Positions 26,453 to 63,314 of a DNA stretch of 64,000 bases are shown here, in pieces. The notes below the pieces were generated by a model that worked only from the letters and a program-made list of their open reading frames with translations, had not been told where the DNA came from and ran no database searches. Source of the stretch: Mustelus asterias (Eukaryota). The DNA lies in contig NW_027590151.1 in NCBI RefSeq assembly GCF_964213995.1, positions 310,001 to 374,000 on the forward strand, read 5' to 3'. The translations under genes and the position numbers were made by a program. Position 1 is the first letter of the stretch. Every line of letters starts with the position of its first letter.

Positions 26453-26668
26453 ATGTAAAATTTTGATTCTGTGATTCTGTTGACAAGTGGGATTAGGTAG
26501 GCAGGTCAGGGCCTTTCATGCATCGGTGCAGACTCAGTGGGTCGAAGGGCCCCTTCTGCACTGTAGGATCCTGTGATTCTGATTCAGTGAACTCGTCCAG
26601 GCTAATCGTTTCTGCTTAGCACTGAAAGTGCACCCTCTGCTGATCACTAAATATAACACCCTGCCCGG

Positions 26669-26945
26669 GGCTTTTGTACGGGATTCTCTGTATCTCTGAA
26701 GCAGGTGGGCTCCATGGCACAGAAATACACAGCACTATCAGAGAGAAGGTTTCCAGCGATATTTAAAGGAATCGTTTTGTTTTCTTTGTGCAAAATAGCA
26801 GACAATCTATCTGGATAATCTTTAGACGTGGCTCCTGTGCTACATATCGTTAATAAATATTTCGGAGATTTCCTCGGGAGACTTGATGTACGAGAACAGA
26901 GTTCGAGCATCAGCAGCCGAGTAACTGCAGCCCAGTTTTATGTTA
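26669..26945 (-). pseudogene. TCR alpha/delta V pseudogene, 5'-truncated, with 23-RSS
   Basis: KLGCSYS..LFSYIK, frameshift, then KSPKYLL...LSDSAVYFCAMEP; RSS CACCTGC-23-ACAAAAGCC (26707-26669). Confidence 0.85.
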
Positions 26946-28738: not shown

Positions 28739-29217
28739 ATGGGAATCCTTCTTGTTTTCACTCTTTTTGTCTGTTTACCACGTGAGTACCGATCGAACTT
28801 ACCCACATTGTATGGATTGAATATCAAGATACCCCAGTCCATCTCAATTACAGACGCTGTCTGGGGTTTTAGCCCCGTTGTGTGGTTCTGCTCTGATGGT
28901 CCATTAAACTCTGTGCTTAATTTCCAGGATCTTTCAGTCAGTCAGTGACACAGAGCCTGTCAGTGGTGAACAGGAAGGAGTGTCAGTCTGTCACCATCAC
29001 CTGCGTTTTCTATGGTGGAAGCGATGTTGCTTCGTTGGAGAGGGGGTTGTTCTTCAGGCAAAGTCAGAACGGGACGAAGCGGGAGTGGATCTCCAGCGGA
29101 GGAAGATTTGCTGTGTCGTTCCATAAAGCTCAGCAGATATTTTCGCTGGAAATTCTGGATATGAGAGTTGAAGACACTGCCACCTACTACTGTAAAGCTC
29201 ATTACAGGTGCAAAACG
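28739..29217 (+). CDS. NAR-TCR V segment 1 (leader 28739-28781, V exon 28928-29217), apparently intact
   Basis: Leader MGILLVFTLFVCLP|gtgagt with a phase-1 intron. V reads SVTQSLSVVNRKECQSVTITC..FFRQ..REWISSGGRF..DTATYYCKA: IgNAR-like loss of CDR2 and a non-canonical FR1 Cys. Confidence 0.9.
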
Positions 29218-29255
29218 CACGGTGATGGGCGTGGGCTTCCAGCGATACTAAAACC
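29218..29255 (+). other. 23-type RSS of NAR-TCR V1
   Basis: CACGGTG-22 nt-ACTAAAACC. Confidence 0.85.
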
Positions 29256-29580
29256 CTCACTATAGATTATCACAGAAACAACTGAAACAGAGGAGTAAAT
29301 CTGCCCTGAAACGCGCACAGTTCCGACTCACACCGTCTGCCCCACAGTCTAGTGTGCAATGAGACTGGTTTATTACCGTTAAAGTCTTTAGTTTTGTAAC
29401 TTCCATGTATGTGACGATGCTGATGTGTTCCGCAGGATTGGTATTGGTGGATGAAGAATGGGAATGATTGATCCCAGTTGCAAACCCTCACAGTAGGTGA
29501 GATTCCAGTGTAACAGCTTGAACTGGGAACAGCAGTGCCCGCTATTTAACTAGTATCCCAACATCGAAACCAGTACCCGG

Positions 29581-29683
29581 GGCTTTTGCCGCTGAATTGT
29601 AACACTGTGTGTGCCAGGTGTTGGGAGTATATGGAGGCATGATTCTGTGAGTGGATCCGGGACGGTGGTGAATGTCTCAGCCG
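29581..29683 (+). other. 12-type RSS plus NAR-TCR (D)J segment 1
   Basis: GGCTTTTGC-13 nt-CACTGTG (29581-29609), then 74 nt reading VPGVGSIWRHDSVSGSGTVVNVSA and donor gtaagt at 29684. Confidence 0.85.
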
Positions 29684-30509
29684 GTAAGTGACTCCAAAGC
29701 CCGACGTGGTACAGACTGTCCCGGTTAATTGTCATGGTCAGTATATTGATCTGCTTCATTTCAATCCAATCGAAAAGGAAACAGATCTATTTCCTATTGA
29801 ATCTCTTCCATTGTAGATATCGATTTGGGAGCAGGATGTGATTCTAAAATCAGATCCAGGTCAGTCCTGGGGACAGTGTGTGCATGAGACCTGATGGACA
29901 ACGTTCTCAAGGAGTCCAGGGTAGTGCGGGTTAAGGGGGGTGGTGGTGATGTGAGGGTTGACAGTATCGGGGCCGTCATTGGTTAAACTAGCACAACAGG
30001 GTTAACATCAACATCAAGAACTCTCACTCCTGATAGTTTTAACAAGTTCAAATTGTCGGCACTCCGGAATCCACTCTGGGTGTTAAATTTCATCGAGGGA
30101 GATCTGTCTGCCGCTTACAACCCGACAGCAGGGGCGCAGAGCTCTCTGCCGGGCAGTAGATTGAAGTCTCAGCTGCACAATGTGAATAAGATACTGGCTG
30201 AATAAGGTCAATGTCACCGTGACCAGTTCATTTAATCGCAGTGATTCCTTCAATAGCTGACCTTGGAGACAAACAGGAAGATGTCACAACGGATTTCAGA
30301 TATAAGCGATCTTATTGTAGGCCCAGATTGAATTTTATTATGGAACAATCAGTGACTGCAATTAATGACATTTTATCTGGCATTTCTTTAAATAACCTCC
30401 ACATAACCAACCACTTTCCTCACTTTCCACCATCAGATTGAAATGTGAATGTTTGGAATTTATTTATGGTAAATGTGGATACTTAAGAGATCGGATTTTT
30501 TTTCTCTCC

Positions 30510-32790
30510 AATTCATTTACTGAACGTGGGCGTCGATAATTAGGCCAACATATATTACCATCCCACGTTGCTCGTTTGAAGATGGTTGTGAGCTGCTTTC
30601 TTGAACCGCTGCAGTCTGTGAGACGTAGGTATACCCATATTGCTATTAAGAAGGATATTGTCCCAGTGAATGTGAAGGAGCGGCGATATATTTCCAAGTC
30701 ACGATGGTGAGTCATTTGGATGGGAACCACTGATTGGTGGTTTTCCCAGGTGCTGCTCATGTCCTTCAAACTGTTAGTGATCCTGCGTTTCGAAGGTGCT
30801 GCCTAACGTGACTTGGTGAGTTCCTACAATGCGTTTTGTCATGGTTGCCACTGTTCATCAGCGTTGATGGGATTGAAAGTTTCTGGAAGTGATAGCAATC
30901 AAGAGCGCTGCTTTCCCTGGATGGTGTCGAGCTTCCGGAGTGTTGTTGGAGGTGTGCTCATCCAGGAATGTGGAGAGTATTCCATTACACTTCTGACTTG
31001 TGCATTGTCGATGGTGGACAAGCTATGCGTGTTTACGAGATGCCTTGGTGGCTGTAGGATTCCTAGCCTCTAACCTGTTTGCGTAGCCACAGGACTTCTA
31101 TAGATGGCATGAATGTTACTTGCTACTTGTCAGCCCCAAGCCTGGATATTGTTCAAGTCTTGTTGCATTTGAGCATGGGCTGCTTCAGTATCTGAGGAGT
31201 CACAATTAATGCTGAACATTGTGAAATAATCGGCGAACATCCCCACGCCTGACGTTATGATGGTAGACAGGTCATTGATGAAACCGCTGAAGGTGGTTGG
31301 GCCTCGGGCACGACTTGCAGTCATGTCCTAGAAATAACATTATATACCTCCAACTACTACAATTATCTTCGTTCGGATCAGCGTGGCCTTACACCAGTGG
31401 ATGGCTTTCCCCGTTTCCCAGTTGCTCAATTTTGCTAGGGTTCCTTGATGCCATACACGTTAAATGCTGCTGTGATGCCAAGAGCAGTCACTCTCACCTC
31501 CCCTCTGGAGTTCAGATTGTTTTGAATATTTGAATCAATGTTAGAATGGGCGAAGCAGCAGGGTAATTCCTGCAGAACCCAAACAAATGGTCTATGAAAA
31601 GGTCACTGATGTATAAGTGGTGCATGATAGCGCTGTATATGATCCATTCATAACTTTACTGACGATTGAGAGTCGATTGATGGTGTGGCCATTCGACATG
31701 CTGGATTCGTCTTGTTTGTGTGTGTTTGTGTACAGGGCATACCTGGGCAATTTTCCACAGAGCTGGGTAAACGCCAGCATTGTAGCTGCACGGGGACTGC
31801 TTGAGGAAACAAGTTCTGGAGCACAAATATTCAGTACTATTACCGGAATACTGTTCGGGCCCATAGATTTTGCAATGTCCAATGCCTTCAGTTGTTTCTT
31901 GATATCACATTAAGTGAATCCAATTAGGAGGGCACTGACCTTCGTAATGGGTCATGCAGTTGAACCTTCTGGCTGTAGATTGTTCGAAGGCTTCAGGCTT
32001 ATCTTCACCAGATCAACAACTCATTTTTCGGCATGCCTCGTATTGCTCCTGGCATGCCATCCTGCAGTGCTCATTGAGCCAGTGCTGATCCCCTGATTTG
32101 TTGTTAACGGTAGATTGGGAATATGCCGGGCCATTCTGTTACAGGTTGTGGTTGAGTAATATTCTGTTGCTGGCTCAGAGCGCATCATGGATGCTCAGTC
32201 TTGAGTTGCTAGATTTGTTTGAAGTATATCCCATTTAACACGGTGGTCGTACCACACCACATGATGGACGATATTCCCAAAATGAAGACCGGACTTTATG
32301 TCCACAAGAACTGTGATTATCGCTTCTACGGATGCTGTTGTAGACAGATCCATTTACAGCAGGGAGGTTGGTGAGGATGAGCTCAATTTGTTGTTCTCTC
32401 TTGTTTGTTCCCTCATCACTTGTCGTAGTCCCAGTCTAGCAGTTATCTCCCGATAGGACCCGGCCAGCTCTGTCTGTGGTGATGTTGTCGAGCCACGTTT
32501 GGTGATGGACATTGAAGTTCCAGACCCAGAGTACATTCCGTACCCTTCCCAGCCGCAGTGCTTCCTCTAAATGATGTTAAACATAGATCAGTAGTGATTC
32601 ACCGCTGAGGTATGTGCTACCCAGCAGGGCGTCTCACTTGGTGTCATGCGACTTCATGGGTGCAGAGCTGATGCTTACCACTCCCAGGGCAACTCCCTCC
32701 GAATTGTTTACAACTGTTCTGCCACCTCTGCTGACTCTGTCCTGCCGATGGATCACGACATAATTAGGGATGAGGATGGTGGCATCCAGG
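30510..32790 (-). mobile_element. Old decayed LINE (CR1/L2 group)
   Basis: Remnant peptides FINDL..VGMFAD, KSMGPNSIP..LNICAPEL; a related tail occurs at about 51400-51750. Confidence 0.7.
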
Positions 32791-35639
32791 CTATTGCTGT
32801 AATTTCTCAGTATCCCTGATAATCGTAAATTGAAATAACACTGTGCAGTGAGAGAGTAAGGATGGTGCGATCATCGTATAAAAGGAACAATTATGAAGAG
32901 AATATTCATCCAGAACCAGCAGGAAATAATCAATCAAATGGGAGAGAAGGATTGGATTATTCATGGAGAATCCTCAAAGCAAAACCAACCACATGGATGG
33001 ATAATGAGATTTGAGGAGTGTTGAGCTGAAATATGTCGGGAATGCTGTGAAAAGTTTTGTCTCCTTTCTCAAGGAAGAATCTACATACTTCGGGGGATTT
33101 TCACACAGGTTCATCAGGCTGATTCTTGGGATAAATTCATTGTCCTTTGAGAAGAAATTGAGGATCCATGCCTATTAGAGTAATGAGGACTGACCACATC
33201 AGAATGGATGATATTCTGAAATGACTTGGCAAGGCAGGTTCTGGGTTGTTGTTTCTCTAGACTACGAAGTATATAACTTGGGGTCCTATTTTCAGAATAA
33301 TGTTTCAGCCATTTGATCTCAGAAGACGAGATATTTCTTCAGTCAAAGCCATTGTGGTGAAACTGTAAAATCTATATCTCAGAGAGATGAAGATAGTCAA
33401 TGCTAAATGCATTCAAGGCAGCGTTTGTTATATATCTGAATACTAAAATGATCAGAGGCTTTGGGGATTGTAAGACAATTTGATGTTGAGGCAAGAGATA
33501 TGTCGCAACATTACAAAATGCTGGAGTAGTTTTGAAATGGTGAACAGACGCTCCTCCTTCTATCAGTCAGAAGTTTTGCTTCGATGATTCAATTTCTAAG
33601 GAAAACAATCACTAACGATCTACATCTCTCTGGAAAGTTGGAATATGCTGGGTCTTTTTTTCTGGAGACTGGAAAATCACGAGGAGGATACATGAATATT
33701 GTTGAAATTATGGAAGGATCTAATAGGGTGGATGTGGGCCAATTGTTTACTGCTGAATGTACCCAGAGTAAGGTGGTATTAACATGCGACAGAAATACAA
33801 CCCCAATTGATGTCACTACTGGATGCGAAGGTCCCAGAGTGCAACCCTGGCCCAAAAGAACATAGAGCTTTATTTTGTTTTAGGAAACGTAGATGAACAG
33901 AATCACAGGAAAGCCAATTAGCTTTTAACAACAAGAATATAAACATTTATTAAACATGAAGAGTTTACCTATAATACAATACTACTTCACCCCACATTTG
34001 TATTCACAGATGTGCACAGGTTTTAAGGATAACACAGATTCAAAATATATATTATGCTCTATTATTGTTAGTCAATACACAATTCCTGCAAACCAATATG
34101 CCAATGCGGTCAGACACACTCCACTCTGAAACTAAGTGACAGAGGCCATCCAATCAAACTTCTGTGGATTTCTCTTCAAATCGCCCCAGTTGATTATGAC
34201 ATTGTGAGTCAACTGGCATGACTGGACTCTGGTTTGCACATAAATATTTCCGATACCCCACTCTCGAGTGTCGGAATCTTCTTCCAAAAAATGCTTTCCA
34301 TCGGCTCTTTTCAGCAAGCATCAAGATCCAGGATTTCCAACTCTCCTTTCAGTATTCCTTTGAATTGAATTGTCATGCGCATTCAAAACTCTACACGAAC
34401 AGCCAGGTGCTGTGCCTTGTTAATAGAACACTACTGCTTCACAGACTGTAGTAAGATATCACATCTTAATTATTATATAAGACAGATGGTTTGCCGACGT
34501 CAGCAGGTCTCCCAGTTCAGCTGTGCATTCAACTGGAAACCTCAGTTATTTATTTACCTTTAATGGACCTTTGTTCAGTTTCCAATTCCGTTGTTCAGTT
34601 CAACGGTTCAACAGTTCAACGTTGTCCAATTTAGTTTCCAATTACCTTTGTTCAGTTTCCAGTTCAGTTGTCCCTTTACGTTCAGTTTTACAGGACTTCA
34701 CTTTTAATTCCCTCTTTTCGAGAACGATCTGTTCATTAATTCCTGGGAGTTCATCTCTTCCCATTACTCCATTGTAATGGATTCAGTCGCTGGCACAGTT
34801 GTGAGAGCTACTTTCTCTGTCACCGCCGAGCTCCAAGTGCCTTGGGGTCAGTTAAAATGAAACTCAAAGATACATCATTATCTCAAGGTGTCTCCTGTCT
34901 GCCAATATACCATCTGTTCCTTCTTTACTCTTGTTTCCTTTTCACATCGTAAACTTTTTATACACAATGCAGGCACAGTTTAATATGAATCCACAACGCC
35001 CCCAGATGCAAACACCACCCTACATGCAAATGCACGCACAGTGGTTAGAACTGCTACCTCACAGCACCAGGGACCCGGGTTCGATCCCGGCTTGGGTCAC
35101 TGTCTGTGTTGGATCTGCACGTTCTCCCCGTGTCTGTCCTGGTTTCCTCCTAGTGAACAATGAACAAGGAAAATTACAGAACAGGAAAAGGTCCTTCGGC
35201 CCTCCAAGCCAGCACCAACAATGCTGCCTGTCTTAACTAAACCCCCGAGCCTTCCGGGAACCATATCCCTCTATTCCCATTCATATTCGCAAAACGCCCC
35301 TTAAAAGTCACTACTGTTTCCACTTCCACTACCTCCCCCGGCAACGTGTTCCAGACACCCACCACCCACTGTGTAAATCTGTGCCCCCTTGTAATTGACT
35401 CTTCCACGCTGGGAAAAAGCTTCTGAATATCCACTCTGTCCATGCCTCTCATAATCTTATAGACTTTTATCAGGCCGCCCCTCAACCTCCGTCGTTCCAG
35501 TGAGAACGAACCAGATTTCTCCAACCTCTCCTCATAGCTAATGCCCTCCATACCAGGCAACATCCTGGTAAATCTTTTCTGCACCCTCTCCAAAGCCACG
35601 ACATCCTTCTGGTACTGTGGCGAATAGAATTGAACACTA

Positions 35640-36428
35640 TAATAGCAAATTGGATTATTATCTAAATGGAAAAAAAATACAACATGCTACTGTGCAAAGG
35701 GACCTGGGGGTCCTTGTGCATGAGACGCAAAAACCCAGTCTGCAGGTGCAACAGGTGATCAAGAAGGCAAATGGGATGTTGGCCTATATCGCAAGGGGGA
35801 TAGAATATAAAAGCAGAGATGGCTTGCTGCATCTGTACAGGGCATTGGTGAGGCCGCAGCTGGAATACTGTGTGCAGTATTGGTCCCCTTATTTGCGGAA
35901 GGATATATTGGCCTTGGAGGGAGTGCAGAGAAGGTTCACCAGGTTGATACCAGAGATGAGGGGTGTTGACTATGAGGAGAGACTGAGCAGATTGGGTTTG
36001 TATTCGTTGGAATTTAGAAGGTTGAGGGGGAATCTTATAGAGACCTATAAGATCATGAAGGGGCTGGATAGGGTAGAGATGGAGAGATTCTTTCCACTTA
36101 GAAAGGAAACTAGAACTAGAGGGCACAGCCTCAAAATAAAGGGGGGTCAGTTTAGGACAGAGTTGAGGAGGAACTTCTTCTCTCAGAGGGTGGTGAATCT
36201 CTGGAATTGTCTGCCCACTGAAGTGGTGGAGGCTACCTCGTTGAATATGTTTAAATCACGGATAGATGGATTCCTAATCGGTAAGGGAATTAGGGGTTAT
36301 GGGGATCAGGCGGGTAAGTGGAACTGATCCACTTCAGATCAGCCATGATCTTATTGAATGGCGGGTCAGGCTGGAGGGGCTAGATGGCCTACTCCTGCTC
36401 CTACTTCCTTTGTTCTTATGTTCTTATG
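35640..36428 (+). mobile_element. Nested CR1 3' fragment
   Basis: Near-identical to 23380-24160. Confidence 0.9.
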
Positions 36429-37032
36429 TATATTCTATAAAGCTGCAATATGACTTGCCAATTTTTAAACTCAATGCCCCGGCCGATGAACGCAAGCATG
36501 CCGCATGCCTTCTTGACTGCCTTCTCCACCTGCATTGCCACTTTCAGTGACCTGTGTACCTGTACCCAGATCCCTTTGCCTATCAATACTCTTAAGGGTT
36601 CTGCCGTATACTGTATATTTCCTATTTGTATTAGTCCTTCCAAAATGCAAGACCTCACATTTGTCCGGATTAAACTCCATCTGCCATCTCTCTGCCCAAG
36701 CCTCTAACCGATGTATATCCTGCTGAATCCTCTGATGGTCCTAATCACTATCCGCAAATCCACCAACTGAAAACGTACTAATCAAACCAGTTACATTTTC
36801 CTCCAAATCATTTATATATATTGCAAACAGCAAAGGTCCCAGCACTGATCCCTGAGGAACGTCACTTGTCACAGCCCTCCATTCAGAAACGCACCCTTCC
36901 ACTGCTATCTCTGTCTTCTTTGACCGAGTAAGAGTTTTGTATTCACCTTGCCAGCTCATCTCTGATCCCATGCGACTTCGCCTTCTGCACCAGTCTGCCA
37001 TGTGGGACTTTGTCAAAGGCCTTTCTGAAGTC

Positions 37033-38676
37033 ACAATGGAGAGGGATGTGTTGACTGGGAGTGTTTCGGAGGGGAGTGTTGAACCGTTGGAGAAATTCTC
37101 CATTTCAAGGGAGGAAGTGTTAGGTTTGTTAGACATATCCCCAGGGCCTGATGGAATCTTTCCAAGGTTGCTCAGGGAGACGAGAGATGAAATCGCTGGG
37201 CCTCTGACGCAAATCTTTGTCTCGTCACTGGACGCAGGTGAAGTCCCAGAGGATTGGAGGATAGCTAATGTGGTCCCGTTATTTAAGAAGGGGAGGAAGG
37301 ATAACCCGGGTAATTATAGGCCGGTGAGCTTGACATCCGTGGTGGGAAAGTTGTTGGAGAAGATTCTTAGAGATAGGATGTATGTGCATTTAGAAAGGAA
37401 TAAACTCATTAACGATAGCCAGCATGGTTTTGTGAGAGGGAGGTCATGCCTCACTAACCTGGTGGAGTTTTTTGAAGAAGTGACCAGAATGGTTGACGAG
37501 GGAAGGGCCGTGGATGTCGTCTATATGGACTTTAGTAAACCGTTTGACAAAGTCCCTCATGGTAGGCTGGTGAAAAAGGTTGGATAAAGGGGGAGGTGGC
37601 TAGATGGGTGGAGAACTGACTTGGTCACAGAAGACAGAGGGTGGTAGTGGAAGGGTCTTTTTCCGGCTGGAGGCCTGTGACTAGTGGTGTTCCGCAGGGC
37701 TCTGTATTGGGACCTCTGCTGTTTGTGATTTATATGAACGATCTGGCGGAAGGTGTAACTGGGGTGATCAGTAAGTTTGCGGACGACACAAAATTGGCAG
37801 GACTTGCAGATAGTGAGGAGCATTGTCAGAGGCGACAGAAGGATATAGATAGGCTGGAAATTTGGGCAAAGAAATGGCAGATGGAGTTCAATCCTGCTCA
37901 ATGCGAAGTGATGCATTTTGGTAGAAATAATGTAGGGAGGAGCTATACGATAAATGGCAGAACCATAAAGGATGTAGATACGCAGAGGGACCTGGGTGTG
38001 CAAGTCCACAGATCCTTGAAGGTGCCGTCACAGGTGGAGAAGGTGGTGAAGAAGGCATATGGCATGCTTGCCTTTATAGGACGGGGCATAGAGTATAAAA
38101 GTTGGGGTCTGATGTTGCAGTTGTATAGAACATTGGTTCGGCCGCATTTGGAATACTGCGTCCGGTTCTGATCACCACACTACCAGATGGACGTGGAGGC
38201 TTTGGAGAGAGTACAGAGGAGGTTTACCAGGATGTTGCCTGGTATGGAGGGGCTTAGTTATGAGGAGAGATTGGGTAAACTGGGGTTGTTCTCCCTGGAA
38301 AGACGGAGGATGAGGGGAGACTTAATAGAGGTGTACAAAATTATGAAAGGCATAGATTGGGTGAACGGTGGGAAGCTTTTCCCCAGGTCGGTGGTGACGT
38401 TCACGAGGGGTCATAGATTCAAGGTGAAGGGGGGGAAGTTTAACACAGACATCAGAAGGACATATTTTACACAGAGGGTGGTGGGGGCCTGGAATGCGCT
38501 GCCAGGCAAGGTGGTGGAGGTGGACACACTGGGAACGTTAAAGACTTATCTGGATAGCCATATGAACGGAGTGGGAATGGAGGGATACAAAAGAATGGTC
38601 TAGTTTGGACCAGGGAGCGGCACGGGCTTGGAGGGCCGAAGGGCCTGTTCCTGTGCTGTATTGTTCTTTGTTCTTT
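37033..38676 (+). mobile_element. Nested CR1 (RT region)
   Basis: RT motifs and (ttctttg)n tail; same subfamily as 48920-49692. Confidence 0.9.
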
Positions 38677-38967
38677 GTCCATGTAGACAACATCTACTGC
38701 CCTATCCTCATCAATCATCTTTGTCACTTCCTCGAAAAACTCCAGTAAGTTAGTGAGACATGACTCCCCTTCACAAAACCATGTATCCTCTCACTAATAC
38801 GTCCACTTATTTCCAAGTGGGGATAAATCCTGTCTCGAAGAATCCTCTCCAATAATTTCCATGATGTAAGGCTCACCGGTATGTAATTACCTGAATTATT
38901 CTTGCTGCCCTTCTTAAACAAAGGAACAACATTGGCTATTCTCCAATCCTCTCGAACCTTCCCTGTA

Positions 38968-40652
38968 AGAAGTCTCACAACACCAGGTTAAAGCCCAACA
39001 GGTTTATTTGGTAGCAAAAGCCACGAGCTTTCGAAGCGCTGCTCCTGCATCAGGTGAGTGGGATTTCAGTTCACAAACAGGACATATAAAGACACGAACT
39101 CAATTTACAAAATAATGGTTGGAATGCGAAGTTTACAGGTAATCAAGTCTTAAAGGTACAGACAATGTGAGTGGAGAGTGAGTTAAGCACAGGGGAATGG
39201 ACGAGTTAACCCTCTCTCCACTCATATTGTCTGTACCTTTAGTACTTGATTAGCTGTAAAGACTCGCATTCCAACCATTATTTTGTAAATTGAGTTTGTG
39301 TCTTCATATGCCCTGTTTGTGAACTGAAATCACGTGATGAAGGAACAGTTTGATAAGGTGCCTCACAAAAGGTTGCTGAAGAAGATTGGGTCACACGGAG
39401 TTGGGGGTAGGGTGTTAGCGTGGATTGGGGATTGGCTATCCGACAGGAAGCAGGGAGTCGGAATAAATGGGTGCTTTTCTGGTTGGCGGATGGTAACTAG
39501 TGGCGTGCCGCAGGGATCGGTACGGGGGCCTCAGCTATTTACCATTTATACAGACGATTTGGAGGAGGGGACTAAGTGTAGGGTAACAAGGTTTGCAGAC
39601 GACACAAAGATAAGTGGAAAAGTGAATAGTGTGGAGGGCGCAGAAGGTCTGCAGAGAGATTTGGACAGGCTGAGTGAGTGGGCGAGGATCTGGCAGATGG
39701 AGTATAACGTTAACAAATGCGAGGTTATTCACTTTGGAAAAAATAATAGCAAATTAGATTATTATCTAAATGGAAAGAAATTACAACATGCTGCTGTGCA
39801 GAGGGACCTGGGGGTCCTTGTGCATGAGACGCAAAAACCCAGTCTGCAGGTGCAACAGTTGATGAAGAAGGCAAATGGGATGTTGGCCTATCTCGCAAGG
39901 GGGATAGAATATAAAAGCAGAGATGGCTTGCTGCATCTGTACAGGGCATTGGTGAGGCCGCAGCTGGAATACTGTGTGCAGTATTGGTCCCCTTATTTGC
40001 GGAAGGATATATTGGCCTTGGAGGGAGTGCAGAGAATGTTCACCAGGTTGATACCAAAGATGAGGGGTGTTGACTATGAGGAGAGACTGAGTAGATTGGG
40101 TTTGTATTCATTGGAATTTAGAAGGCTGAGGGGGGATCTTATAGAGACCTATAAGATAATGAAGGGGCTGGATAGGGTAGAGATGCAGAGATTCTTTCCA
40201 CTTAGAAAGGAAACTAGAACTCGAGGGCACAGCCTCAAAATAAAGGGGGGTAATTTTAGGACAGAGTTGAGGAGGAACTTTTTCTCTCAGAGGGTGGTGA
40301 ATCTCTGGAATTGTCTGCCCACTGAAGTGGTGGAGGCTACCTCGTTGAATATGTTTAAATCACAGATAGATGGATTCCTGATCGGTAAGGGAATTAGGGG
40401 TTATATGGATCAGGCGGGTAAGTGGAACTGATCCACTTTAGATCAGCCACGATCTTATTGAATGGCGGGGCAGGCTCGAGGGGCGAGATGGCCTACTCCT
40501 GATGCTATTTCTTATGTTCTTATGTTCTTATGTAACAGCGCTTCGAAAGCTAGTGGCTTTTGCTACCAAATGTACCTGTTGGATTTTCACCTGGTGTTGT
40601 GAGACTTTTTACTGTGTTTACCCCAATCCAACGCCGGCATCTCCACATCATG
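38968..40652. mobile_element. Penelope inverted-pLTR remnant containing CR1 (39349-40533, +)
   Basis: Penelope TSD acct[t/c]ccctgta at 38956 and 40653; CR1 TSD aacag falls inside hammerhead stem II. Confidence 0.85.
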
Positions 40653-43600
40653 ACCTCCCCTGTAGCCAGTGAGGAATCAAAGATTTCGCTCAAGGCCCCA
40701 GCAAATTCCTGCCTTGCCTCTCTCAGTATTCTGGGCTATATCCCATCAGGCCCTGGGAACTTGTCTATCTTAATGTTTCTCAAGAACCTCAAGACCTCCT
40801 CCTTTTTGATGGCAACATGACTCAAATCATCCACACATCCTTTCCGAGACTCATCATCCACCAAGCCCTTCTCTTTGGTAAATACTGACGCAAAGTACTC
40901 ATTTAATGTCTCGCCCATTTCCTCTGGCTCCACGCATTGATTCCGTCCCTTGTCCTTGATTGGGCAAACCCTCTCCCTGGCTACCGACTTGCACTTTATA
41001 GATGCATAAAAACCCTTGGGATTTTCCTTAATCCTGCTGGCCAATACTTTTTCGTGACCCCTTTTAGCCCTCCTTACTCCTTACTTAAGTTTCTTTCCAC
41101 TTTCCTTATATACCATACTTGCTTCGTGTGTTCCCAGCCTCCTAGCTTTGACGAATGCTTCCTTTTTCTCTTTGACGAGGCTCACAATATCTCGTTATCC
41201 AAGGTTCCCAAATCTTGCCATACTTGTCCTTCATCCTTACAGGAATGTGCCAGTCCTGGATCCCTATCAACTTACACTTGAAATCCTCCCACATGCCAGA
41301 AGTTGATTTACCCTCAAACATCTGCCCCCAATCTACATTCTTCAGTCCCTGCCTAATATTGTTATAATTAGCCTTCCCCCAATTTAGCACCCTAACTTGA
41401 GGACTACACTTATCTTTATCCATCAGTACCTTAAAGCTTACTGAATTTTGTTCACCGTTCCTGAACTGCTCCCCTACTGAAACATCGACTACCTGGCCGG
41501 GCTCATTCCCCAATACCAGGTCCAGTATGACCTTGTGGGCTATCTACATACTGTTTCACCAAGCCCTCCTGGGTGCTCCATACAAACTCTGTCCCATCCA
41601 CTTAGTGCCCATTGCACTAAGTGAGTCCCAATCTAGGGGAAGTTAAAATCTCCCACCACAACAACCCTGTTACTTTTACACTTTGCTAAAATCTGCCTAC
41701 ATTTCTGTTCCTCTATCTCCCGCTGGTAGTTGGGTGGCCTATAGTAAACCCCCAACATTGTGACTACACCCTTCCTATTCCTGAGCTCTACCCATATTGC
41801 CTCGCTGTATGAGCCCTCCGAGGTGTCCTCCCGGAGTACACCTGTGATATTCTCTTTAACCAGTAGTGCAACTCCCCGACCCCTTTTACATTCCCCTCTA
41901 TCCCACCTGAAACATCTGTACCCTGAAATGTTAAACTGCCAAACCTGTCCTTCCCTTAACCACGTCTGTGTAATGGCAACAACCTCATAGTGCCTAATAC
42001 TCATCCAAACTCTAAGTTCATCTGCATTACCTGTTACACTTCTCGCATTGAAACAAATGCACTTCAGTCCACCAGGCCTTCTTTGATTAGCAACCCCAAC
42101 CTGCCTGTTTCTCTGAGTCTTACTGGCTCTACTTTCTGGTTCCCCTTCAGCTAATTCGCCTTTGCATTGGATCCCACCCCCCTGTCAAACTAGTTTAAAT
42201 CCTCCCGTGTGACACTAGCAAACCTCCCGGCCAGAATATTTATGCACTTCCAGTTCAGATGCAACCCGTCGTTCTTGTACAGGACCCACCTGCCCCAGAA
42301 GAGACCCCCAATGGTCCAGATATCTGAAACCCTCCCTTCTACACCAGCTGTTTAGTCACGCGTTGAGCTGCACTATCTTCCTATTCCTAGTCTCACTAGC
42401 ACATGACACAGGGAGTAATCCTGAGATTGCAGCCCTAGAGGTCCTGCTGTTTAACTTTCTACCTAACTCCCTTAACTGCTGCTGCAGGACCTCATCACTC
42501 TTCCTGCCTATGTCGTTAAGTGCCAAAATGTACCACAATCTCTGTCTGTTCACCCTCTCCCTTCAGAATGCTTTCTGTCCATTCAGAGACATCCTGGACC
42601 CTGGAACCAGGGAGGCAAAATACCATCCTGGAGTCTCTTTCACGTCCACAGAAGCGCCTATCTGCATCCCGAACTATAGAGTCCCCTATAATTATTGCTC
42701 TAGTCCTCTTTGTCCCTCCCTGCTTAACAACAGAGCCAGCCGTAGTGCCAGTGCTTTGGCTGCTGCTGCTGTTATCTCCTGATAGGCCATCTCCCCCAAA
42801 GGTATCCAAAATGGTATACTTGCTAGAGAGGGGGATGACCACAGGGGATTCCTGCACTGATTGCCTGCCCTTTCTAGTGGTCATCCATCCATCTTCCTGC
42901 ACCTTCTGTGTGACCACGTCTCTAAAGCTCCTATCTGTGATGTTTTCCGCCACCTTCATGCTCCTACATGCATCCAACTGCTGCTCCAACCTATCCATGC
43001 GGTCTGTAAGGAGCTGCGATTGGGTGCACTTCTTGCAGATGTAGTCGTCCGAGACGCTGGAAGCATCACGGATCTCCCACATCTCACACGTTTAGCACTT
43101 AACCCCACTGTCCAACATTTCGAACACCACTTAAATTATTTGAGAAAATTTATAAAACTCTTACCTTCATTTTTACCTTCTCACAGTGGCCTTTTTTTGG
43201 TCAAGGGAGGAGGGAGGAAGGGAAACACTGATGTAGTGTTTCTGGTTTACCGTTCTTTGACATCAGATCTTCTGCTTCCCACTTCTTGGTCGATGTTGCT
43301 TGTCTGACTTCTCACAGAATGCTCCGCTTTCTGTCCACAGTTCGAAAGACGTGCTGGTCATGCTAAATTCTCCATCTGTGTACACAAACAGGCAATGAGG
43401 TGTCGCGACTGGGGGATTTTCACAGTAACTTTAGTGCAGTGTTCATCTACGCCTATTATGACGTTAATAAGTAAACGTGAAAACAAAATGTTTAACATGA
43501 ATCTAACTGGAGCTTTACTCTTTCTTATGCATAAATGCAAAACTAAATTCACTGAAACCTATTCCTTATTTCCAGTATCCAACATTGCAAACAGAGACTT

Positions 43601-44259
43601 TGTGTTTCCAGTCATTAACAGAAAAAGGTACAGACATTAAGAAGAAGAAACGTAAACTCAGACAGGCCAGAATGAAGATCTCACTGTCACACTGAGTATT
43701 TCGAGCAGGGAGTATTGATACATTCAGGTACCAGGCCGGTGAAGCTAGTAAGCAATATTTTCACATACATAAATTCGGCCGAATTGTCTATTCTTCTTCT
43801 GCAGTTTCTATACGTTGTAAAATTTAGTGCAAAATCCGCCAGAGAATCCAGGAGAGAATCAGTTAATGGGCCGAAAGAATTGAAATTGCCAGACAGCCAG
43901 AAGAGGCAGTTTCCAGTGAGTAACAGTAAAATCACTGCGGAAACAGAACAAACTGAACCCAACCGGCAATTGAGAGACTTTGGGACAGGGCCCCACGATT
44001 CTGAGAAACTCAAAAACTACAAAGCAAAAATAGAAATGAAATAAAACTGACTGTAACTATTTCAATTTAAAGAGAAATTGAGAAATAATGTTACTGACAG
44101 GGAGAAGAAGACAGAGAAATAGATTAAAATGCAGGCATAGCTTCCAGGAAATGTTAAACTGAAATGAATGAATTTCAAACGTTCAAGATCATTCAGCCCC
44201 ATTGGGACCTCTTGAATCTTGCTGTGCTCAGTGATGTAACACACCTGGGTTACTATATC

Positions 44260-44935
44260 ACAATCATTTCGAGAAACGTACACAAGCAGGACCAAGGCCT
44301 TCATGTCGCTTGTCATTCCAACACACCATCCTGCTCTCATGTCCACATATCTTTGCTTGGTCTGCCACAATGTTCCAGTGAAGCCCAAAGCAAACTGGAG
44401 GAACAGCATCTCATCTTCCGATTAGGCACTTTATAGCCTTCTGAACTGAAAATTGAGTTCAACAACTTCAGAGCATTAACTCATTCCTCCAGCTCCATCC
44501 CATTTCCATGTATTTCGTCTTTTTGTCACAATTTATTTATTTATTTTCATCTTTACATCATTCCTAACTATCGCATTCCATCTTCCACCACCCACTACGG
44601 TCTCCCCTTCTCCTATTCTAATCGGGCCTTGTGTTAAATGTCTCAGGTTTTTCTTTGACACTCTGCTTACCATTGTTCTGCCATTTATACAGGCTGACAT
44701 CTCTATGTCCGCTATATGCACCCCTGTTAGCCATGATCACCACTATTAACATTCCCTTATGTCTTTTTGCCTATGCCAACTTTGTCAATCCCCTCCCGTC
44801 TTCACCCCTCACCATAACAGTATCAATATCATTCTATTTTCTCTTGTCTTCAGCTCTGATGAAGGGTCATCATGGCTCTTTGCTCTTCACAGATGCTGTC
44901 AGACCTGCTGAGATTTTTCTGCATTTTCTGTTTTT
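44260..44935 (+). mobile_element. Older Penelope-like 3' fragment
   Basis: GIY-YIG C-terminus KLEEQHLIFRLGTL. Its 3' tail is shared with short copies at about 1000-1085, 3300-3395 and 52360-52540. Confidence 0.75.
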
Positions 44936-45400
44936 TTTAATTTATGTAAACATATTGTCTCACTGACAATGAAATGACCGCTCGGGTTAGTCTTTCAACA
45001 CGGAAAATGGAAACTGAAATATAGCATGCATCACAGGATCATACAGTGTGGAAACATGACATTCGGGTAGCTGCTGCCCCTCTATAAGTGAAAACCAATT
45101 CTTCTCACAAACCATGATATTTCCCCTTTATCTTGTTTTTGTTTTCCTGTTCAGGCACTTGACTATTACTCGTTTGCAATCACTGTTGAATCAAATCCAA
45201 TCAGTATTCTGGCACTGCATTCCATATGTTAGATCTTGCTGTCCAAAATAAAATACAATCTCATTTTTCCACTACGTTATGTTCTATTAACAGTTAATAT
45301 AGCTCGATCGCCATTACTTTTATAACAATAGCGCATGAGAACAGAGTTATTCTCATGATTGCCACATTGCCCAAAATCAATATTTTGTTTTATTCTTCAG

Positions 45401-45706
45401 ATTCCAGTTCCCTGGTGTCTAAGGATCCGCCTCTCCAAATTTGTGCTGTCGATGATACGGTGACTTTAAGCTGTGAATATTCAGGTCTCTGTCAGCACAC
45501 ATTGCATTGGTACCGTCAGTCCCCAGGGCAGGCTGCCAAATACCTGCTTCAGACACACACTTCAGGCGGGGAGAATAAAGAAAACGCTGACGGGCGTAGA
45601 TTTTCTGCTTCTGTCGATTCTGCCGAGAAGATCAGCCGGTTAAACATCACCAAACTAGAACTGAGCGACTCTGCTGTGTATTACTGTGCACTGAGTCGGC
45701 GCACAG
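45401..45706 (+). CDS. Supporting TCR V-delta segment 1 (leaderless), apparently intact
   Basis: Phase-1 acceptor at 45400; TLSCEYSGLCQHTLHWYRQ...DSAVYYCALSRR with CDR1 Cys; perfect RSS CACAGTG-23-ACAAAAACC at 45707-45745. Confidence 0.9.
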
Positions 45707-46136
45707 CACAGTGACACAGAACACGGAGAGAGCTGTACAAAAACCTGAACATGGTGAGGATTACAGACACAGCGGTGTAGAACACGGAGAGAGCTGTACA
45801 AGAACCTGAACACAGTGAGGTTTACAGACACACAGTGATACAAATCGCGAAGATAGCTGTCCAAACATCCGGACATGGCGAGTATTAGAGGAAGTTGTAA
45901 TACTCAACATGTTCAGGTTTCTGTACAGCTCTCTCCGTGTTCTATATCACCCTGTCTGTAATCGTCACCATGTTCAGGTTTTTGGACAGCTCTCTCCGCG
46001 TTTGTATCACTTTGTCTGTAATGCTCAATATGTTCAGGTTTGTGTACAGCTCTTTCCGTGTTCTGTATCACTGTGTCTGTAATCCTCTTCATGTCCAGGT
46101 TTTTGTTCAGCTCTCTCCGTGTTCTGTGTCACTGTG
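45707..46136. repeat. Two opposed tandem arrays of about 61-bp units, each unit a 23-RSS (3 on +, 4 on -)
   Basis: Heptamers at 45707, 45768, 45831 (+) and 46130, 46069, 46008, 45948 (-), each 22-23 nt from a nonamer. Confidence 0.9.
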
Positions 46137-46439
46137 CTGTTTGCCGACTCAGTGCACATTAATACACAGAGAAGTCTCTCAGTTGTAGTTTGGAGATCTT
46201 TAACTGGTTCATTTTGACTGGAGACTTGGCAGTAGCAGAAAATCTCCCTTCGGTAGCGTTTTCGTTGTTCTCTTCTGAAGTGCGCGTCTGAAGTAAAAAT
46301 TTCGGAGCCTGTCCTGGGGATGGACTGTACCAGTGTACTGTGTACTGACAGTTCCCTGAATATTGACGCCCTAAAGTAACTGTCTTGCCGGTAGCAGAAG
46401 TTTGGAGAAGTGAACTGTGTGACACAGAGGAACTGGAAT
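46137..46439 (-). pseudogene. Supporting TCR V-delta segment 2, pseudogene
   Basis: Paralogue of 45401-45706. First Cys is changed to Arg and YYC to Y*C; CDR1 Cys is kept; perfect 23-RSS at 46098-46136. Confidence 0.9.
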
Positions 46440-50206: not shown

Positions 50207-50306
50207 CGTCCGGTGACTGAAGACAGTCACCACCTTCCAAGACCCATCTGAAAATCTCCATTCTCCCGATAGTGACAGCCCTCTCAGTCAGACCAGTACA
50301 AGAGTG
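50207..50306 (-). pseudogene. NAR-TCR J segment 2 with degenerate 23-RSS
   Basis: DGSWKVVTV aligns to SGSGTVVNV of J1, and the downstream flank is homologous to 29690-29760. RSS GATAGTG-23-ACAAGAGTG at 50268-50306; splice donor lost. Confidence 0.7.
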
Positions 50307-50635: not shown

Positions 50636-51127
50636 GGGATTTGTCCTTCTCTTTTCCATTGTGGTGTCCCATGTGTGTAGTACCAGTGCTGAGCTTTACA
50701 GTAATAGGTGGCGGTGTCTTCAACTCTCACATCCCGAATTTCCAGAGAAAATATCTTTTCTGCTTTATCCAACGACACAACAAATCTCCCTCCGCTGGGC
50801 ATCCGCTCCCGCTATGGCCCGGTCCGGAATTGTCTGAAGAAATGTCCATTTTCTAAATCATAAACACCATAGAAAAGACAGGCAATGGCGCGAGCTTGAC
50901 ACTCATTCCGGGTCACCGCTGCCGGGCTGCGTGTCACTAACTGACTGAAAGATCCTGGAAATTAAACACAGAGAATTTAAAGGACCATCAGAGCCGAACC
51001 ACACAACGGGGCTAAAATCCCAGGCATTGTCTGTAATTGGGATAGACTGGGGCAGCTTTATATTCAATTCACGCAATGTGGGTTCGTTTGATCAGACACA
51101 CAGCGTGACAACATGGAGGATTCCCAT
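50636..51127 (-). pseudogene. NAR-TCR V segment 2 pseudogene with 10-nt extension and 12-RSS
   Basis: Paralogue of V1 (RNECQ..C..FFRQ..SGGRF..YYCKA). The leader splice donor is deleted and there is an in-frame TAG. RSS CACAATG-12-ACAAATCCC at 50663-50636. Confidence 0.88.
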
Positions 51128-61221: not shown

Positions 61222-61700
61222 ACGGAAACCATTTGTTCTCCATGCTACTTACTGATAATAATGATCTTGCTGCCCGGCGAGTCCATGATTAAATGGTAAC
61301 CATGTCATCCAGTGGTTATTTTTAAACCCTGACTTTCGAGCCAATCTGTATTTGTGTGACATGAATGAGTGACAAAACTTCAGTGTTCGAGGCTCATTTC
61401 GAATTAACAATTCGGGAAGGACAGTGTGGACTGGACTGTTGTTACTTGATAACCTGCACTACCCCAACTCTACTCTGGTACATGCAGTATTCTGGGGAAG
61501 CTCCGAGATATTTGCTGAAGAAATATAGCTTAGGGGGTGAAGAAAGGTCCCCAAACCGAGGTTCTCTGCAGATTTGCAGAAGGGAAACAAAACAGTTCCT
61601 TTATATCTCGCGGGGGCTCTTCTGTCGGATACTGCCGCGTATTTCCGTGCGATGGAGCACACACTGATACAGAGATAGAGCGGATCCAGTCCGAAACCCC
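61222..61700 (+). pseudogene. TCR V pseudogene with decayed leader and RSS
   Basis: Leader-like CYLLIIMILLP with gcgagt donor (61222-61276); LLWYMQYSGEAPRYLL, frameshifts, SDTAAYFRAMEH; heptamer CACACTG at 61660. Confidence 0.8.
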
Positions 61701-62816: not shown

Positions 62817-62855
62817 AGTTTTTGTATCGGAGTCAGACTGCTTTCCATCACTGTG
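62817..62855 (-). other. 23-RSS
   Basis: CACAGTG-23-ACAAAAACT. Confidence 0.93.
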
Positions 62856-63314
62856 AGTCTGAAAGCGCAGTAATACACGGCAGCGTCAGACAACTGCAGA
62901 TCCGAGATAGTCAAACTGATGGATTTATTCGGGATTTGGTGGTCAGTCGAGAAACGGATTTCAGCAAAATCTGCTTTGTATTCATTACCCCCCGAGTACT
63001 TCTCCAGTATGAACTCGGGCTGGGAGTCTGGGTGCTGTCGATACCAGTATAAATAATAGTTGATTTCTGCAGTATCATAGTTGCAGTTTAATGTCATCAC
63101 GTCTCCTTCTGTCTTAACATCTGAGGACAGCGGCTGAGTGACAGAATCTCCATGGGTCAGACCTGGAAAATATGTTCAAATAGATAAAGAATAGAGTGAC
63201 GTGTACTCAACAGTAAGATTCAACCCAAGTTTTGGAAATGAGAAAACAAACGTGACGTCCAAAAATACCTGTGAGAAATGCCCCCCACACAATCCAAATG
63301 ACGAGTATCTTCAT
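62856..63314 (-). CDS. Conventional TCR alpha/delta V segment, intact (leader 63314-63269, V exon 63162-62856)
   Basis: MKILVIWIVWGAFLT|GLTHGDSVTQ..LNC..WYRQHP..DAAVYYCAFRL; canonical splice sites. Confidence 0.93.

Follow-up and report, generated by a model that had tools for sequence, protein, structure and literature searches.

An inherited D-J fusion in a shark NAR-TCR cassette, likely made by RAG in an ancestral germ cell

The stretch of DNA analysed here (the window, 64,000 nucleotides long; G000:C119:310001-374000, with cassette positions given in window numbering) carries on its forward strand a cassette of NAR-TCR type. A leader exon (28739..28781, +), made of an ATG, 14 codons plus 1 nt and a GT donor, aligns with the leaders of paralogues and precedes an open V1 exon (28928..29217, +) with a Cys in the a-b loop (RKEC), no Trp at the WYRK position and an extra Cys near its 3' end, three codons before the exon end (29209-29211), which may be unpaired. 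The V1 RSS (29218..29255, +; CACGGTG-22-ACTAAAACC) is followed by 326 bp of V-D intervening DNA (29256..29581), 65-77% homologous to the same stretch in unjoined cassettes, and by a D 5' 12-RSS (29582..29609, -) with a perfect heptamer, a spacer of the family type and a degenerate nonamer (GGCAAAAGC; ATCAAAACC in the family). On the + strand this leftward signal reads as a heptamer CACTGTG at 29603-29609, a 12-nt spacer and a nonamer at 29582-29590; a reading with a 13-nt spacer (nonamer 29581-29589) was rejected because the paralogue alignment has no insertion. The first-pass annotation had placed a 12-type RSS in front of a 74-nt open segment, and the type stands by heptamer and spacer length, whereas the nonamer departs from consensus at 4 of 9 positions. 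The segment itself (29610-29683), open in the J frame (VPGVGSIWRHDSVSGSGTVVNVSA), comprises a D part (29610..29628, +; 15-19 nt, with the joint between about 29624 and 29629) and a J part (29625..29683, +; nearest to the J type of L012/L017, 89%, with an xGSGTVVxV motif), and ends at the J splice donor GTAAGT (29684..29689, +).

An intron of 15.7 kb (29690..45400, +), collinear with the ~2-5-kb introns of paralogues and enlarged by repeat insertions, leads to a supporting TCR-delta-type V1 (45401..45706, +) with a CDR1 Cys (GLCQH) and an acceptor in phase with the J donor. Behind it lie a perfect 23-RSS and then tandem RSS repeats (45707..45869, +), which also occur in paralogues; V and RSS together span 45401-45745. 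V1, the J donor and the supporting V1 are thus open, and both V signals are in place, as had been claimed on first inspection. The supporting V1 has an extra Cys at codon 15 (QICAV), absent from the six paralogous supporting V exons compared, which may be unpaired. A second cassette faces the first on the opposite strand: its supporting V (46137..46439, -) is broken by a stop in the YYC codons, its J2 (50210..50267, -) has a 23-RSS and a donor that are both decayed, and its V (50636..50954, -), a pseudogene by a stop and the loss of the leader donor, is germline-joined to D, with the 3' 12-RSS of D present. Behind each of the two facing supporting V genes (window 45707-46136) the 23-RSS recurs in tandem, in repeats of 61 bp; paralogues show this too, with up to five good copies in L034. 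The window also holds other conventional TCR alpha/delta V segments at 26660-26880 (-), 61400-61700 (+) and 62817-63100 (-), the last with a good 23-RSS.

Several traits place the cassette among NAR-TCR genes. The top three matches of V1 among PDB sequences are VNARs (best E 1.1e-15), and a protein search gave 54 shark and ray homologues at 54-72% identity; no model or ORF of the window copy or of a close orthologue appeared in the V1 protein searches, where the best matches reached 72% among longer proteins and 69% among those of near length. V1 has the MGILL.. leader, the RKEC Cys in the a-b loop and FFRQ instead of the WYRK Trp, and leader, loop Cys and absent Trp are features of NAR-TCR V genes as described in the available text of PMC1845163. 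A supporting V-delta with a CDR1 Cys lies downstream of the NAR J, in phase and across an intron collinear with those of paralogues, and RSSs were found for V1 and for the supporting V1. Based on its N-terminal V, its leader, Cys and Trp traits and its supporting V, the cassette can be assigned to NAR-TCR; its two V domains may be made by separate V(D)J rearrangements, and the chain may be expressed on C-delta. A run search for the window sequence gave no RNA run among the matches listed. In other sharks, some gene models (P0001, P0005, P0007, P0008) give the impression of a complete CDR3; they were set aside as evidence, as their 'TV/SV/SLW' residues look like J-heptamer read-through, as in P0002.

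Ordinarily, every immune cell cuts and joins its D and J pieces afresh. In a census of 40 V-bearing places (30 loci from one genome search, 10 from another; in the own-genome search 40 of 81 candidates were scored), 14 of the 40 cassettes have the unjoined layout V-22 / 12-D-12 / 22-23-J, with a D of 13-19 nt and a J of 52-59 nt. The window aligns with these unjoined cassettes up to the D heptamer and then again from J, while ~400 bp in between are absent; D and J are exactly the elements that flank this gap in the alignment. The window cassette lacks the D 3' RSS, the J RSS and ~375 bp of spacer DNA. The breaks fall at the coding ends, and the 5' signal of D is kept; leader intron, V-D spacer and J-V intron are all retained. 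A genome-wide search for the pattern 'D-RSS, 35-65 nt, J core' gave 3 matches and its reversed control 0, so that the arrangement is not due to chance; a fully joined V-D-J had no genome-wide match to an exact pattern, which is not proof of absence. The comparison confirms that D and J of this cassette are already fused in germline DNA, and the earlier claim of such a join is borne out by the 14 unjoined paralogous cassettes and by the position of the gap.

The border within the fusion is drawn differently from before. A D remnant of ~13 nt had been proposed, resting on the 53-nt J of a neighbouring pseudogene family, for which a gap has to be introduced; without gaps, the J type that matches best is the 59-nt one of L012/L017, which extends back to 29625, and the D-typical end GGGAGT extends to 29628, indicating a D of 15-19 nt with little or no trimming. 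One could also read the 74-nt element as a long J with its own 12-RSS, i.e., as a D-less type of V-J cassette, since the 22/12 pair between V and this J-like segment formally amounts to a V-J locus. This reading, to which we assign hardly any probability, is refuted by the homology of the RSS and of the upstream spacer to the D 5' RSS and the V-D spacer of paralogues; moreover, all 14 unjoined cassettes have a separate D and a J of 52-59 nt with a 22/23-RSS, and none has the unjoined J of equal length with a 12-RSS that had been named as the refuting case.

The join is present beyond a single sample. Contigs bridge it in three of four runs from two studies (X1, X4 and X5), whereas no X3 contig spans it; the further runs X10-X13 contain small shares. 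The X1 and X4 contigs show 0 differences across the join, being two samples of one study that is possibly the source of the assembly, which leaves room for a somatic lymphocyte rearrangement or a mis-assembly captured in the genome sequence. This explanation is refuted, and we regard it as negligible, since the X5 contig, from another study and another organism (organism B), carries this join too, with 38 differences in 736 nt among the differences listed (~95% identity); in addition, the own-genome search found no unjoined twin of the window cassette above 81% identity. The fusion is therefore inherited and older than the split between the two organisms. Among the differences listed between organism B and the window, only 1 (synonymous) falls in RSS, DJ and donor (144 nt) as opposed to 37 in 592 nt of intron (p 0.005, assuming that 19 unlisted organism-B differences lie further downstream).

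The window cassette is one of three D-J joined cassettes among the 40 (with L002 and L011); 18 have V joined to D (one junction common to 17 and another in L023), two are inverted, and in three the sequence breaks off in the V-D spacer. The three D-J junctions differ from each other and sit on separate branches of the tree. Altogether, the family holds at least 8 distinct germline recombination junctions, namely 3 D-J, 2 V-D, 1 supporting-V-to-D and 2 inversions with perfect signal joints. Copy numbers are soft because some near-identical places (L024 and L025 are 100% identical over 3553 bp) may be haplotype copies, while the junction types are unaffected. L011 has the same D and J as the unjoined L016, minus about 3 nt on either side, and over 4.8 kb downstream the two are 99.4% identical; the V side matches at 94-95%, which hints at a join or crossover between two cassettes. 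In L002 (2471-2500) the D part is long (26 nt), and its opening letters, ACTCCC, are a D end in reverse complement. The supporting V of L002 is frameshifted, so joined cassettes do decay. The V-D join of cassette 2 (window 50636-51127, -) is old and common to 17 other cassettes (L024-L030, L049-L058), often in tail-to-tail pairs; of the cassettes sharing it, some are open with good RSSs and others decayed.

Sister cassettes bear directly on the agent. In L015/L039 (G000:C122:393147-398930), an inversion of 5.7 kb has linked D to the end of its own, inverted supporting V and is closed by a perfect CACTGTG|CACAGTG signal joint; the 99.5% identity of L015 to the unjoined L013 makes it a recent event. 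In L022 (2080-2890; G000:C110), the end of the NAR V is joined to the RSS of J, the V-J spacer is inverted, and the RSS of the NAR V stands head to head with a 12-RSS matching that of D-delta in another perfect signal joint, a configuration that we interpret as a multi-step germline rearrangement. Such a perfect joint is a hallmark of RAG. The supporting V is fused to D-delta in 3 of the 10 cassettes whose supporting V end was read, with one shared junction; these fusions (L033:2650-2720, L091, L093) keep the 23-RSS of D, have three J per unit and lie closest to C.

Taken together, breaks at the coding ends, retained introns and sister cassettes with the hallmarks make it likely that RAG cut and joined D to J in the germ cell of an ancestor, and the retention of all introns excludes retroposition. 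The window junction is itself old, and no outgroup D or J is near enough for P/N nucleotides to be recognised in it. Germline joins made by RAG are established for shark Ig light chains, according to the available text of PMC2193156. A deletion independent of RAG, by microhomology or unequal crossing-over, might also have taken out the D-J spacer, and GAGT, readable as the end of D or the start of J, would allow for a short microhomology; we nevertheless consider this very improbable, as neither break is more than a few bases away from an RSS border, equal precision is seen in three D-J junctions, two V-D junctions and one V-D-delta junction, and perfect signal joints close two inversions.

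Whether the joined cassette is still in use is a separate question. Our preferred reading, held with moderate confidence, is an inherited D-J fusion, likely made by RAG in an ancestral germ cell, in a cassette that is probably still usable and whose tip would be completed by a single V-to-DJ join. Four exons are open, with intact splice sites, though flanking non-coding DNA has diverged by 16% on the window branch; the chance of no stop in four exons at this divergence, counting substitutions only, is 0.017. The branch pN/pS of the supporting V1 (0.40-0.43; Fisher p 0.026) indicates constraint, V1 and DJ form a 22/12 RSS pair, and the splice phase is correct. Decay of the TATA box was weighed and discarded, since the element varies among unjoined paralogues too.

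The same cassette might instead be decaying slowly and be used rarely or never, its join being real but a side effect of leaky RAG activity in germ cells on a family of duplicates. This possibility is not a small one, even if we find it doubtful. It would fit the many changes in the V1 framework, whose branch pN/pS of 0.57-0.71 cannot be told from neutral (p 0.33) and exceeds that of the L002 branch (p 0.002), and which has a P-to-L change in common with the decaying L051-L056 clade. It would also fit the D 5' nonamer, alone among 20 in having no TTTTGAT core (retained in the 19 other D 5' signals), although the nonamer of the unjoined L012 is likewise 4 positions off consensus. The intron swollen by repeats, the pseudogene state of the facing cassette and of several other joined cassettes, and the lack of own D, J or C point the same way: in C119:300-584 kb, downstream of the cassette, the first J segments appear at a distance of 198-206 kb and the sole C exon at 217 kb, on the same strand, and the D near these distant segments is already fused to another supporting V. 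Against decay stand the four open exons with intact splice sites after 16% non-coding divergence, the constraint on the supporting V1 and the near-identity of RSS and DJ in organism B, so that we judge the window cassette usable with fair, not strong, confidence. The cassette of L011 and L034 (G000:C173:94075-140230), with a recent D-J join, an open V, an intact supporting V and its own D, J and C, is a better candidate for a functional pre-joined receptor.

If the window cassette is used, its history and assembly may have run as follows. RAG would have fused D to J in an ancestral germ cell; in a thymocyte, V1 would then join DJ by a deletion of 392 bp, about one in three times in frame; the supporting V1 would be joined to a J-delta or D-J-delta ~200 kb away, J would be spliced to the supporting V across 15.7 kb, and the finished chain would pair with a gamma chain. 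A direct 23/12 V-to-J join spanning ~200 kb would conform to the rule, and TCR loci normally make joins over such a distance. The earlier view gave a single rearrangement for the N-terminal domain; the chain, having no own D, J or C, still needs a second one of ~200 kb.

Pre-joining would remove one of two variable junctions and fix the D frame, with two D frames lost. The CDR3, much of which had been taken as fixed by the fusion, is thereby reduced to one junction and one D frame, but its J half is fixed in unjoined cassettes as well, as D and J are present once per cassette. If V and DJ were joined bluntly, the reading frame would be off by one base, so that bases have to be trimmed or added. 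The predicted CDR3 would have ~20 residues; its front would vary, and its back would be fixed and GVGSIWRHDSV-like (..GVGS-IWRHDSV..). The tip would thus be less diverse than in unjoined cassettes and semi-restricted; the single variable junction and fixed D frame agree with the proposed semi-invariant receptor, but the V junction varies and the receptor would not be invariant. Early (neonatal) expression, also proposed at first, may be envisaged by analogy with shark Ig (available text of PMC2193156 and PMC4279169).

The cassettes belong to larger repeated units. A TCR constant exon was matched in 19 of 40 genome candidates (at least 19 exons; L034-L035, L082-L094), and 15 of the 19 C exons follow a NAR-TCR cassette of the same strand at a distance of 16-58 kb. 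In two units read fully, NAR V-D-J is followed in turn by a supporting V, two 12-D-23 segments, five J and C. By the 12-D-23 and few-J layout the C exons are probably of delta type, PDB matches not separating alpha from delta. We interpret the layout not as a single translocon but as a series of NAR V-D-J / V / D-D-J(5) / C miniclusters, some of which may be haplotype copies. A bolder proposal is that the NAR-TCR/TCR-delta system of this shark lineage is organised like antibody genes, as ~19 self-contained miniclusters that RAG continues to edit in the germline, with the window cassette as an old product kept by selection across species as a semi-invariant, innate-like single-domain receptor; we put it forward tentatively and think it unlikely to hold in full.

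With at least eight distinct germline junctions, which differ in age and include retained signal joints, the family extends RAG activity in germ cells from Ig to TCR loci. Matched joined and unjoined sister cassettes (L011/L016, L015/L013, L023/L008) could show whether pre-joining gives an early or dominant T-cell repertoire, and a fixed D-J offers a defined NAR-TCR tip for ligand hunts, the ligands of NAR-TCR being described as unknown in the available text of PMC7615758.

The following comparisons refer to the available text of the sources cited. No germline-joined NAR-TCR was found in the literature searched, including PMC5931798, PMC3457774 and the PMC3964593 supplement, a scope outside which the founding NAR-TCR papers (Criscitiello 2006, 2010; Ott 2021) lie; germline joins are already known for shark Ig, marsupial TCR-mu and newt TCR-delta. 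The NAR-TCR of cartilaginous fish has the same IgNAR-like V with leader, its own D and J, and a supporting V-delta with CDR1 Cys and RSS (PMC1845163, PMC5931798, PMC3457774), and differs from the window cassette in that D and J of the latter are pre-joined. For the TCR alpha/delta locus of sharks, a translocon has been described (PMC12227049, PMC6795676), in contrast with this genome, where most cassettes have their own D-D-J-C-delta unit in a minicluster layout recalling TCR-mu and shark Ig.

Germline-joined shark Ig clusters occur as VD-J, VDJ and VJ (PMC4279169), and a pre-joined D is found in bamboo shark IgNAR (PMC8692893). As in the joined shark Ig clusters, the cassettes described here show precise loss of RSS and spacer, unjoined sisters, several independent events, retained introns and, apparently, little or no N addition (PMC4279169, PMC2193156); they differ in belonging to a TCR locus, in the D-J form, which is not among the forms in PMC4279169, and in signal-joint inversions kept in the germline. 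TCR-mu was named as the only germline-joined TCR case (PMC7615758, 2023), to which the newt TRD V-J was added in 2025 (PMC12698447). The newt pre-joined V-J is likewise fused in the germline, sits in a TCR-delta locus and is expressed by one third of the clonotypes, but it is complete, a single event and without a NAR domain, whereas the window join is a partial D-J (PMC12698447). Finally, marsupial TCR-mu resembles the system described here in its three-domain chain, tandem clusters and germline-joined element (PMC7615758, PMC3457774); V-mu-j, however, encodes the supporting domain in one fully joined exon that most likely arose by retrotransposition (PMC7615758, PMC3457774), while the window join is partial, lies in the antigen-binding N-terminal domain and has kept all its introns.
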